Under the pieces are notes generated by a model. It had not been told where the DNA came from. It made no database searches and saw only the letters and a list, made by a program, of their open reading frames with translations. A program made the position numbers and the translations under genes. This document shows positions 37,441-39,567 of a stretch of 64,000 nt of DNA, piece by piece. The stretch is from Escherichia coli (GTDB lineage Bacteria > Pseudomonadota > Gammaproteobacteria > Enterobacterales > Enterobacteriaceae). Within the stretch, counting starts at the first letter, position 1. Each line of letters begins with the position of its first letter. Where the stretch lies: NCBI RefSeq assembly GCF_003334405.1, contig NZ_QOWM01000003.1; one strand, 5' to 3'.

Positions 37441-39567
37441 TTAGTCCTCGTTTACAACCTTCTGCTGGGCGGCTTTTTTGGCCTGAGCGCGGGCAATAGC
37501 CGCGGCAACTGCCGCTTTGCGCGGATCAACCTGTTCTTCTGGTACCGCATTAGCCTGTTGCTGTTCCAGCTTGCGTGCTTTGGCGCGTGCAATAGCCGCT
37601 TCGACGGCAGCTTTGCGCGGATCAACCTGTTCTTCTGGCTCCGCATTAGCCGGTTGCTGTTCCCGTTTGCGCGCTTTGGCTCGGGCAATAGCGGCTTCGA
37701 CGGCGGCTTTGCGCGGATCGACCTGTTGTTCTGGCTCGGCATTAGCCTGTTGCTGTTCCAGCTTGCGTGCTTTGGCACGGGCAATAGCGGCTTCGACGGC
37801 GGCTTTGCGCGGATCGACCTGTTGTTCTGGTTCCGCATTAGCCTGTTGCTGTTCCAGCTTGCGCGCTTTGGCGCGGGCGATAGCTGCTTCAACGGCAGTT
37901 TTACGTGGATCAGCAACGGTTGCTGCGTCGTTAGTTTGCTGCAGTTCTGCCTGTTTCGCTCTGGCTTGCGCTTTACGGGCTTCCCGTGCTGCAATAATTG
38001 CACTGTTATCCGGGCGTTCGCCCGCTTTAATCACAATAGGCTGTGTAGCCTGGGCCTGTTTCTCTTTCACCCGCGCCAGAGCGGCAGCAATCGCATCTTT
38101 ATCTTTGGCTGCAGGTTGAACGGCTGCGCTCTTATGTCGTTCAAGGCGAGCCGCTTTTTCGCGCTCCAGACGAGCCTGGCGCGCTTCGAAACGCGCTTTG
38201 GCTTCTGCGGCGCGCTTTTCTTCCTGACGAATAGCCGCAATTTCAGCTTTTTCCTGACGGAAATATTGCACCAGGGGAATATTGCTCGGGCAAACCCACG
38301 CGCAAGCCCCACATTCAATGCAATCAGCAATGTTATGCGTGGTAGCTTTATCGTGTTGCTGACCTTTGCTGAACCAGTACAACTGTTGCGGCAAAAGATC
38401 CGCAGGGCAGGCGTCAGCACAGGCGCTACACCGGATGCAGCTTTGTTCTTCCTGTGGTTCGCCAAGTTCATTGGCAGAGGGAGCCAACAGACAGTTGGTA
38501 ATCTTTACGACCGGGACATCCAGCCATGGCAAGGTAAAGCCCATTAGCGGGCCACCCATAATCACCATTTGATCGGCAGAGGGGCAGAATCCGGCATCAT
38601 TCAATAAATGACGCACTGGCGTCCCCAGCCGTGCCCAGACGTTGCCCGGGCGAGCGATTGCTTCGCCAGTCAGGGTTACAACACGCTCGGTAATCGGCTC
38701 GCCATCAATAACGGCACGTTTCACTGCATAAGCAGTGCCGACGTTTTGCATTAATACGCCGATATCGGATGAACGCCCGCCATGTGGAACCTGCTTCCCG
38801 GTCAGAATGTAGGTTAATTGTTTAGCACCGCCAGAAGGATATTTGGTTGGAATCACCCGCAGAGAAATATCGTTAGAGTCCGCCAGCACCGCGCGCAGCA
38901 TGGAAATCGCCTGCGGTTTGTTATCTTCAATGCCGATAAGAATTTCGCGTGGCTGCAGAATATGCGCAAGAATGCGAATACCCTCTACGACCTGAGCCGC
39001 GCAATCCTGCATCAAACGGTCATCGGCGGTAATGTACGGCTCGCACTCAGCCGCGTTGATAATCAACGTTTCAATCTTATCTCCGCCACCCTGCAATTTA
39101 ACGCCTGTCGGGAATCCTGCACCGCCCAGCCCGGCAACACCAAACTGATGTATGCGCTCGATTAACTCTTCGCGACTGCGAGTGCGATAATCGGCCCAGC
39201 CGTCGCGCGGGATCCAGCAGTCTTCACCATCGGCATCAATAATCACGCTTAATTCAGCTAAAGCTGAAGGATGAGCCGTAGAGTGGGGCGCAATAGCCGT
39301 AACGGTACCCGAGGTGGGCGCGTGAACAGGCAGCATTTTGCCGCGACCACGGGTAAGCGGCTGGCCGCGCAATACTTTATCGCCGACGCTAACGCACAAC
39401 TCACCTTCAGCGCCAATATGCTGTTTCAGTGGAATAACAAAACGCTGCGCCAGGGGTACCTGGCGCAGGGGTGTACCGTTGGACTGGGTTTTCATCTCCG
39501 GTGGATGGATGCCGCCGTTGAAATCCCAGATTTTATTTTTTCTGAATGCAGAGAATAACTTAAGCAT
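37441..39567 (-). CDS. rsxC: Rsx/Rnf complex subunit C, 708 aa, with a C-terminal 32-aa tandem-repeat region
   Basis: Two 4Fe-4S ferredoxin motifs ([12 protein letters not shown] and [12 protein letters not shown]) and an NADH/FMN-binding-like domain, followed by 4 full and 1 partial copies of [32 protein letters not shown]. Confidence 0.95.
37476..37920. repeat. 96-bp in-frame tandem repeat, 4 well-conserved copies plus a degenerate fifth, inside rsxC
   Basis: The GCGGATC(A/G)ACCTGTT motif recurs at 37521, 37617, 37713 and 37809, an exact 96-bp period; each unit encodes one 32-aa repeat on the - strand. Confidence 0.9.

Follow-up and report, generated by a model that had tools for sequence, protein, structure and literature searches.

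We analysed the 3' end of the rsxC gene in a window of 64,000 nucleotides (nt) from Escherichia coli (RefSeq assembly GCF_003334405.1, contig NZ_QOWM01000003.1), where a tandem repeat with a 96-nt unit lies in frame within the coding sequence (CDS). RsxC belongs to the Rsx/Rnf membrane redox complex, of which it is the cytoplasmic subunit on the NAD(P)H side. The gene occupies the following position:

37441..39567, minus strand: rsxC CDS, 708 amino acids (aa), stop codon counted in (list of open reading frames, NF003454, Pfam and UMNF18 annotation)

This open reading frame (ORF) is RsxC, electron transport complex subunit C, because its score with the NCBIfam RsxC equivalog NF003454 (867.3 bits over aa 12-570) exceeds the cutoff of 345 and the gene is annotated by RefSeq as rsxC within rsxABCDGE-nth. 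The TIGR01945 rnfC model gives 597 bits against a cutoff of 246. The window matches the record of E. coli UMNF18 at 100% identity, and the RefSeq genes there are ydgK-rsxA-B-C-D-G-E-nth. A sequence-only reading that preceded this work had put the protein at 708 aa, the length given by the ORF list. The Pfam domains follow in the order RnfC_N (aa 14-115), Complex1_51K (FMN; aa 139-283), SLBB (aa 296-344) and Fer4 (2x[4Fe-4S]; aa 376-430), and the Pfam search of RsxC found no domain past aa 430. The protein is thus laid out as a catalytic core of approximately aa 1-450 and a non-catalytic tail of approximately aa 450-708.

The repeat array and its difference from K-12

With Tandem Repeats Finder, one array was detected, at 37487-37912, with a period of 96, 4.4 copies, 89% matches, 0 indels and a score of 635. 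As 96 nt is a multiple of three, each unit amounts to 32 codons. In the reading frame of the minus-strand gene, the array consists of four full 32-aa units (aa 553-680, 37911-37528) and a truncated fifth, whose stop codon at 37441-37443 immediately adjoins the ATG of rsxD:

37816..37911, minus strand: repeat unit 1, aa 553-584 (codon-register reading)
37720..37815, minus strand: repeat unit 2, aa 585-616, identical to MG1655 unit 3
37624..37719, minus strand: repeat unit 3, aa 617-648, a sequence variant identical to MG1655 unit 4
37528..37623, minus strand: repeat unit 4, aa 649-680, a variant ending NAVPEEQV and identical to MG1655 unit 5
37441..37527, minus strand: truncated terminal unit, 28 codons plus the TAA stop

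Both Tandem Repeats Finder and the in-frame reading bear out the four near-identical 96-bp units and degenerate fifth described in the sequence-only reading, as well as its placing of 32-aa repeats at the C-terminal end of the protein; the peptide that it quoted is the exact translation of unit 2. Its anchor positions (37521, 37617, 37713 and 37809) have the correct 96-nt period and are 7 nt out of codon register.

The rsxC gene of K-12 MG1655 (NC_000913.3, b1629) measures 2223 bp and encodes 740 aa. Taking 96 nt out of the MG1655 CDS yields the CDS of the window, with 0 mismatches over 2127 nt, and does so at each of 56 consecutive positions. The MG1655 allele has five full units and one truncated unit, compared with four and one in the window, and the unit missing from the window allele is MG1655 unit 2. 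The length of b1629 and the mismatch-free comparison agree with the statement in the earlier reading that the K-12 protein has 740 aa and is one 96-bp unit longer, and the counting of units against other E. coli rsxC genes, which that reading had proposed as a check, shows that the copy number differs. The difference lies within a short interval:

37769..37823, minus strand: 55-nt interval holding the one-unit difference from MG1655, with perfect direct-repeat homology flanking the missing unit

The indel is bounded by 55 bp of direct-repeat homology and accompanied by 0 other changes, as expected of an in-frame minisatellite. We are highly confident that the array is ms11, a coding minisatellite or variable-number tandem repeat (VNTR) at the 3' end of rsxC in which whole 32-aa units are gained or lost, and that the window allele equals the MG1655 allele minus one unit.

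The one-unit event was most likely a deletion in the lineage of the window strain. An exact copy of MG1655 unit 2 is found in GF54 and KY208, both of which represent another allele background, and an origin of the K-12 allele by duplication would require one extra point change; deletion is therefore the more parsimonious direction. From what is generally known of tandem-repeat instability, neighbouring units would misalign through replication slippage or unequal sister-strand recombination, in this case across the 55 bp of perfect homology.

Repeat number among E. coli genomes

The annotated lengths of rsxC in complete E. coli genomes show that the locus varies widely between strains:

676 aa: JNEC-KY208
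708 aa: UMNF18, O104:H4, 357900, O16:H6 CU37RT-2
709 aa: AVS0662
740 aa: K-12, E. coli C, OkiPb01679, PK5074, 2020N21-110, GF54
742 aa: UPEC_U013
772 aa: O157:H7 Z1831
774 aa: ECONIH2
806 aa: Eco889

Each of the 16 CDSs examined ends in its only stop codon, and their lengths change in steps of 32 aa. The lengths of 709, 742, 774 and 806 aa arise because some units carry an additional Gln codon: loci L007, L009, L015 and L016 contain 33-aa units with QQQQ instead of QQQ. A second, smaller layer of slippage thus appears to operate in the CAA/CAG run inside the unit. With lengths from 676 to 806 aa in whole-unit steps and the frame kept, the description of the array as a strain-variable coding minisatellite in the earlier reading holds.

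The length of 708 aa occurs on at least three unit compositions, one in UMNF18, one in O104:H4 and 357900, and one in O16:H6. The change of length is therefore recurrent, and equal length does not signify common descent. In some lineages the units are nearly identical throughout. An example is O16:H6 CU37RT-2 (L014), whose four full units have a common lineage-specific ending, EEQI, an array type that indicates concerted turnover, to judge from the unit comparisons. The units in the window, in contrast, differ at approximately 30% of synonymous sites.

The frequencies of the length classes were estimated with the longest allele as the query, from 60 rows spaced evenly along the ranked list of 5,425 genomes:

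806-type: approximately 7 of 60 rows
772/774-type: approximately 6 of 60 rows
740/742-type: approximately 35 of 60 rows
708-type: 11 of 60 rows

The joining of BLAST pieces varied between records, and some rows were assigned by spot checks only. Thirteen rows with the match range 1-913 were assigned to 740 aa, as GF54 is annotated with 740 aa and the K-12 strains BW25113 and MFDpir belong to this group. Six rows with the range 1-1009 were assigned to 772/774 aa, with ECONIH2 at 774 aa and O157:H7 strains in the group; O157:H7 Z1831 (772 aa) is itself not among these rows. A separate count agrees with the sample, as 1100 of the 5425 genomes cover at least 80% of a 708-type query in one place. 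The 708-aa class accordingly makes up about 18-20% of genomes.

Every change in unit number that we observed keeps the reading frame, which distinguishes the locus from a phase-variable contingency locus, where the frame or the promoter spacing would shift. The sole exception is a single database protein of 736 aa (P0121), which is 99% identical to RsxC aa 1-532 and then continues through the repeat in an alternative sense frame; this reflects a frameshift allele or else a sequencing error. The ORF list of the window contains that sense frame and two spurious frames on the opposite strand:

37336..38547, plus strand: spurious antisense ORF, 403 aa
37517-38119, plus strand: further spurious ORF
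37452-38003, minus strand: alternative sense frame, open through the whole repeat

The sequence-only reading attributed the long plus-strand ORFs to the repeat, which is only partly correct. The 403-aa ORF continues for approximately 640 nt outside the array, where it covers Ala/Lys/Glu/Gln-rich tail sequence that is not repeated and reaches the region of the ferredoxin domain. The codons used for Ala, Lys, Gln and Glu throughout the tail, and not in the repeat alone, avoid stops in these frames and so keep them open.

Rearrangements of the array also appear in database proteins. P0011, annotated as an "IS1 family transposase", is an 88-aa E. coli fragment in which RsxC repeat units are joined directly to IS1 transposase sequence. 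In this one complete genome, with a contig of 4.77 Mb, IS1 seems to have inserted within the array. In P0034 and P0039 (ORFs of 93-97 aa on contigs of 4.78 Mb) a DmsC/YnfH-like N-terminus, MGSGWHEWPLMIFTVFGQCV (PF04976), is fused to C-terminal RsxC units whose linker, QEQQTGSEPAEP, is different; in those genomes a deletion seems to have joined a gene of the dmsC family to rsxC.

Structure, conservation and possible roles of the repeated tail

Differences between units are mostly synonymous. In the window, the proportion of synonymous differences (pS) is 0.34 and that of nonsynonymous differences (pN) 0.037, which gives a pN/pS of 0.11; a comparison of 31 distinct units drawn from nine alleles yields 0.09. 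An AlphaFold2 model built on a 59-sequence alignment (mean pLDDT, the predicted local distance difference test, of 86) places one helix in each unit, at aa 553-576, 588-605, 617-635, 649-670 and 681-706. Block means of pLDDT are approximately 72-90 at the unit helices and below 50 in the linkers. The unit is accordingly predicted to be a basic alanine-rich helix with a net charge of about +5, followed by a disordered acidic linker of about -4, and such a helix-plus-linker module is probably under purifying selection. The model also defines two features upstream of the array:

37930..38103, minus strand: two degenerate and probably older copies of the helix motif, aa 489-506 and aa 521-546
38122..38277, minus strand: long Glu/Arg/Lys-rich helix leading from the ferredoxin domain to the repeat tail, aa 431-482, AlphaFold2 pLDDT approximately 95

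The degenerate copies are recognized by the predicted helices at 489-506 and 521-546 and by the motif AAAxARxKAKK, which is kept there in the 59-sequence family alignment. The long helix, predicted as one helix in E. coli, aligns with the C-terminal long helix of Azotobacter vinelandii RnfC (PDB 8ahx_C), which according to a review contacts RnfB and RnfH. The A. vinelandii chain stops at residue 496 and contains no tandem DPRK-type units. When the 223-aa tail was compared with the sequences of solved structures, the search returned chance-level matches only (E ≥0.036) and no relative.

The helix core recurs in the tails of other RsxC/RnfC proteins. A search of 1.84 billion representative proteins returned homologues of 248-1246 aa, part of them fragments, and 26 of the 149 homologues scanned (E. 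coli included) have at least three tandem cores in the tail, with periods of 27-96 aa. The core comprises 16 residues starting with K or R and has a charge of +1 to +8, mostly +4 to +7. The linkers, which diverge freely in sequence and length, range from +1 to -13 and are mostly negative, roughly offsetting the core. Carriers of the core include Erwinia, Vibrio vulnificus, Aeromonas caviae, Pseudoalteromonas, Celerinatantimonas, Paraferrimonas and Haemophilus influenzae. Single clusters at 90% identity hold proteins of differing length (the clusters of P0122 and P0123), with RsxC of 773, 782, 825 and 1013 aa in Erwinia and of 820, 840, 874 and 890 aa in Pseudoalteromonas; variation in copy number is therefore probably general across genera. 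A search of 5.8 billion proteins with three units returned RsxC/RnfC fragments together with unnamed or hypothetical ones, and no independent family with the motif.

These results lead us to propose that the tail is a string of four to eight helix modules hanging from the catalytic core, in which the helix core would serve as a conserved binding or self-association module. Catalysis would reside in aa 1-450, unaffected by a change of unit number, and copy number could drift because removal of one module would alter the valency of the tail and not catalysis. Our best guess, held with low confidence, is that the repeat tail forms a multivalent docking or self-association element near RnfB. We regard as possible, and put forward tentatively, the fuller version of this proposal: that the conserved 16-residue helices with their charge-compensating acidic linkers form a multivalent functional array for the docking or capture of a conserved partner or for self-association, with a valency tuned by the VNTR. 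Such an array would be shared by Enterobacterales, Vibrio, Aeromonas, Pseudoalteromonas, Paraferrimonas and Haemophilus and would emerge adjacent to RnfB, where the long RnfC helix ends; its partners would be, for example, acidic electron carriers, or other complexes in the case of self-association.

It is also conceivable that the copy number itself is adaptive, being under diversifying or lineage-specific selection such that the number of helices sets the avidity for a partner and thereby Rsx activity or the re-reduction of SoxR. Consistent with this notion, RsxC/RnfC proteins from several gammaproteobacterial genera share the helix core, on which purifying selection acts, and some lineages have characteristic lengths (772 aa in O157:H7, 806 aa in the Eco889 type). 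Moreover, an in-frame rsxC deletion arose under laboratory selection with olaquindox: the mutation table of a resistant derivative of E. coli ATCC25922 lists a non-frameshift deletion in rsxC without giving its position (PMC7696260), and loss of a repeat unit would fit. However, the same length occurs on different backgrounds while closely related backgrounds differ, which is what near-neutral slippage would give; clonal descent explains lineage-specific lengths equally well, and copy number has no known phenotype. We therefore consider adaptive tuning doubtful.

A tail of tolerated low-complexity filler, whose repeated sequence carries no information, appears to us more doubtful still. Such a tail would account for the lack of a Pfam domain past aa 430 and of any relative among solved structures, for tail lengths among homologues that range from almost nothing to more than 800 aa, and for the RnfC of Clostridium and Acetobacterium, which has no tail. 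It is difficult to reconcile with a pN/pS between units of approximately 0.1, or with a near-invariant 16-residue core that distant genera have retained, whereas the linkers are free to vary both in sequence and in length. In most arrays, furthermore, the negative charge of the linker roughly balances the positive core, whatever the length of the linker.

The tail could alternatively anchor RsxC to the membrane, the basic helices lying on the anionic surface of the inner membrane and holding the protein down. The unit helices are indeed cationic, multivalent and attached to a membrane complex. Their hydrophobic moment, however, is low (0.19-0.25), the basic residues are distributed all round the helix, and large hydrophobic residues are limited to one Val and one Ile, so that there is no bulky hydrophobic face; an anionic membrane would moreover repel the flanking acidic linkers. 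Membrane anchoring is therefore improbable. A membrane-targeting amphipathic helix was considered as a specific candidate and rejected, given the low hydrophobic moment and the spread of basic residues around the helical wheel.

Least probable of all, and in our opinion very unlikely, is an assembly artefact in which the source strain has the K-12 copy number and the assembler merged two similar neighbouring units: the UMNF18 assembly that the window matches dates from the 2011 era, perfect identity over 55 bp flanks the missing unit and the databases hold many partial RsxC fragments, but the 1101-bp stretch of the window is found at the same length and 100% identical in at least 22 complete genomes of unrelated projects (among them NCTC9080 and further porcine and poultry isolates), approximately 100 genomes are at least 99% identical to it, and about one fifth of complete genomes have an allele of the 708-aa class. 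The rsxC allele of the window is real, and the collapse that the sequence-only reading had raised as a doubt is not needed to account for it. Where strains differ in rsxC length, they carry genuine alleles, and such differences should not be treated as annotation errors.

The search with three units retrieved mostly fragments of 55-160 aa labelled "RsxC, partial" from E. coli, Salmonella, Citrobacter and Klebsiella (P0004-P0120). Because these partial fragments are numerous and many come from very short contigs, they suggest that short-read assemblies often break at the rsxC repeat.

Several points weigh against the account given above. The direction of the one-unit event, deletion as opposed to duplication, is an argument from parsimony only. 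The allele frequencies come from a systematic sample of 60 rows in a database weighted towards clinical lineages. The regular expression used in the census of homologues fixes several positions, and part of the apparent conservation follows from the pattern; the independent evidence for conservation of the core consists of the unconstrained positions and the repeat architecture only. The pN/pS ratio is a rough measure, as the units also undergo concerted evolution. Finally, no phenotype has been tied by experiment to the RsxC tail or its copy number. The conservation of the helix is of modest biological interest, in that the non-catalytic tail of a widespread respiratory/redox complex bears a strongly conserved helix motif, and natural rsxC variants with three to seven full units exist that can be used for functional experiments.

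Comparison with known repeat loci

The repeat in the window is the VNTR locus ms11, which was already known. Its unit is 96 bp, and the published primers are GAAACAGGCCCAGGCTACAC and CTGGCGCTGGTTATGGGTAT (PMC8215070, Tables 1 and 2). Both match the window exactly and flank the array, with a predicted amplicon of 670 bp:

38043..38062, minus strand: ms11 forward primer site for multiple-locus VNTR analysis (MLVA), GAAACAGGCCCAGGCTACAC, exact, single match
37393..37412, plus strand: ms11 reverse MLVA primer site, CTGGCGCTGGTTATGGGTAT, within rsxD, exact, single match

The identity of the locus follows from the exact match of both primers, their flanking positions and the 96-bp unit, the primers being taken as reprinted in PMC8215070, which credits them to Gorge et al. 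2008 (J Clin Microbiol 46:1026). At the level of DNA there is no difference between the array and ms11 of the Shigella/E. coli MLVA panel, a locus with several reported alleles in E. coli isolates. The sequence-only reading had missed this identity. Since the locus is ms11, the finding of the repeat is not new, and it carries little weight in itself because the locus has been used for typing E. coli and Shigella since 2008; it remains in routine MLVA use, including a 2025 study of E. coli from pig farms. In the accessible MLVA papers ms11 figures as an anonymous marker of size, with no discussion of the protein repeat that it encodes.

A literature search for rsxC together with SoxR and C-terminal gave nothing on the tail, and a full-text search with the motif string AAIARAKA had as its sole match a typing study of Erwinia. 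The conserved helix motif with its charge-balanced linkers is a modest lead, for which we found no description beyond that study.

A close counterpart is the RsxC of Erwinia amylovora, in which a 40-aa repeat starting at aa 553 is present in 0-5 copies among strains and has been proposed as a typing marker (PMC10587187). It resembles the E. coli array in that it lies in the same gene at the same position and the first 16 residues of the unit are equal. It differs in belonging to another genus, in the length of the unit (40 aa compared with 32 aa in E. coli) and in its linker, AAQAAPAAADKAAPVQQPAAEQ, which is not that of E. coli.

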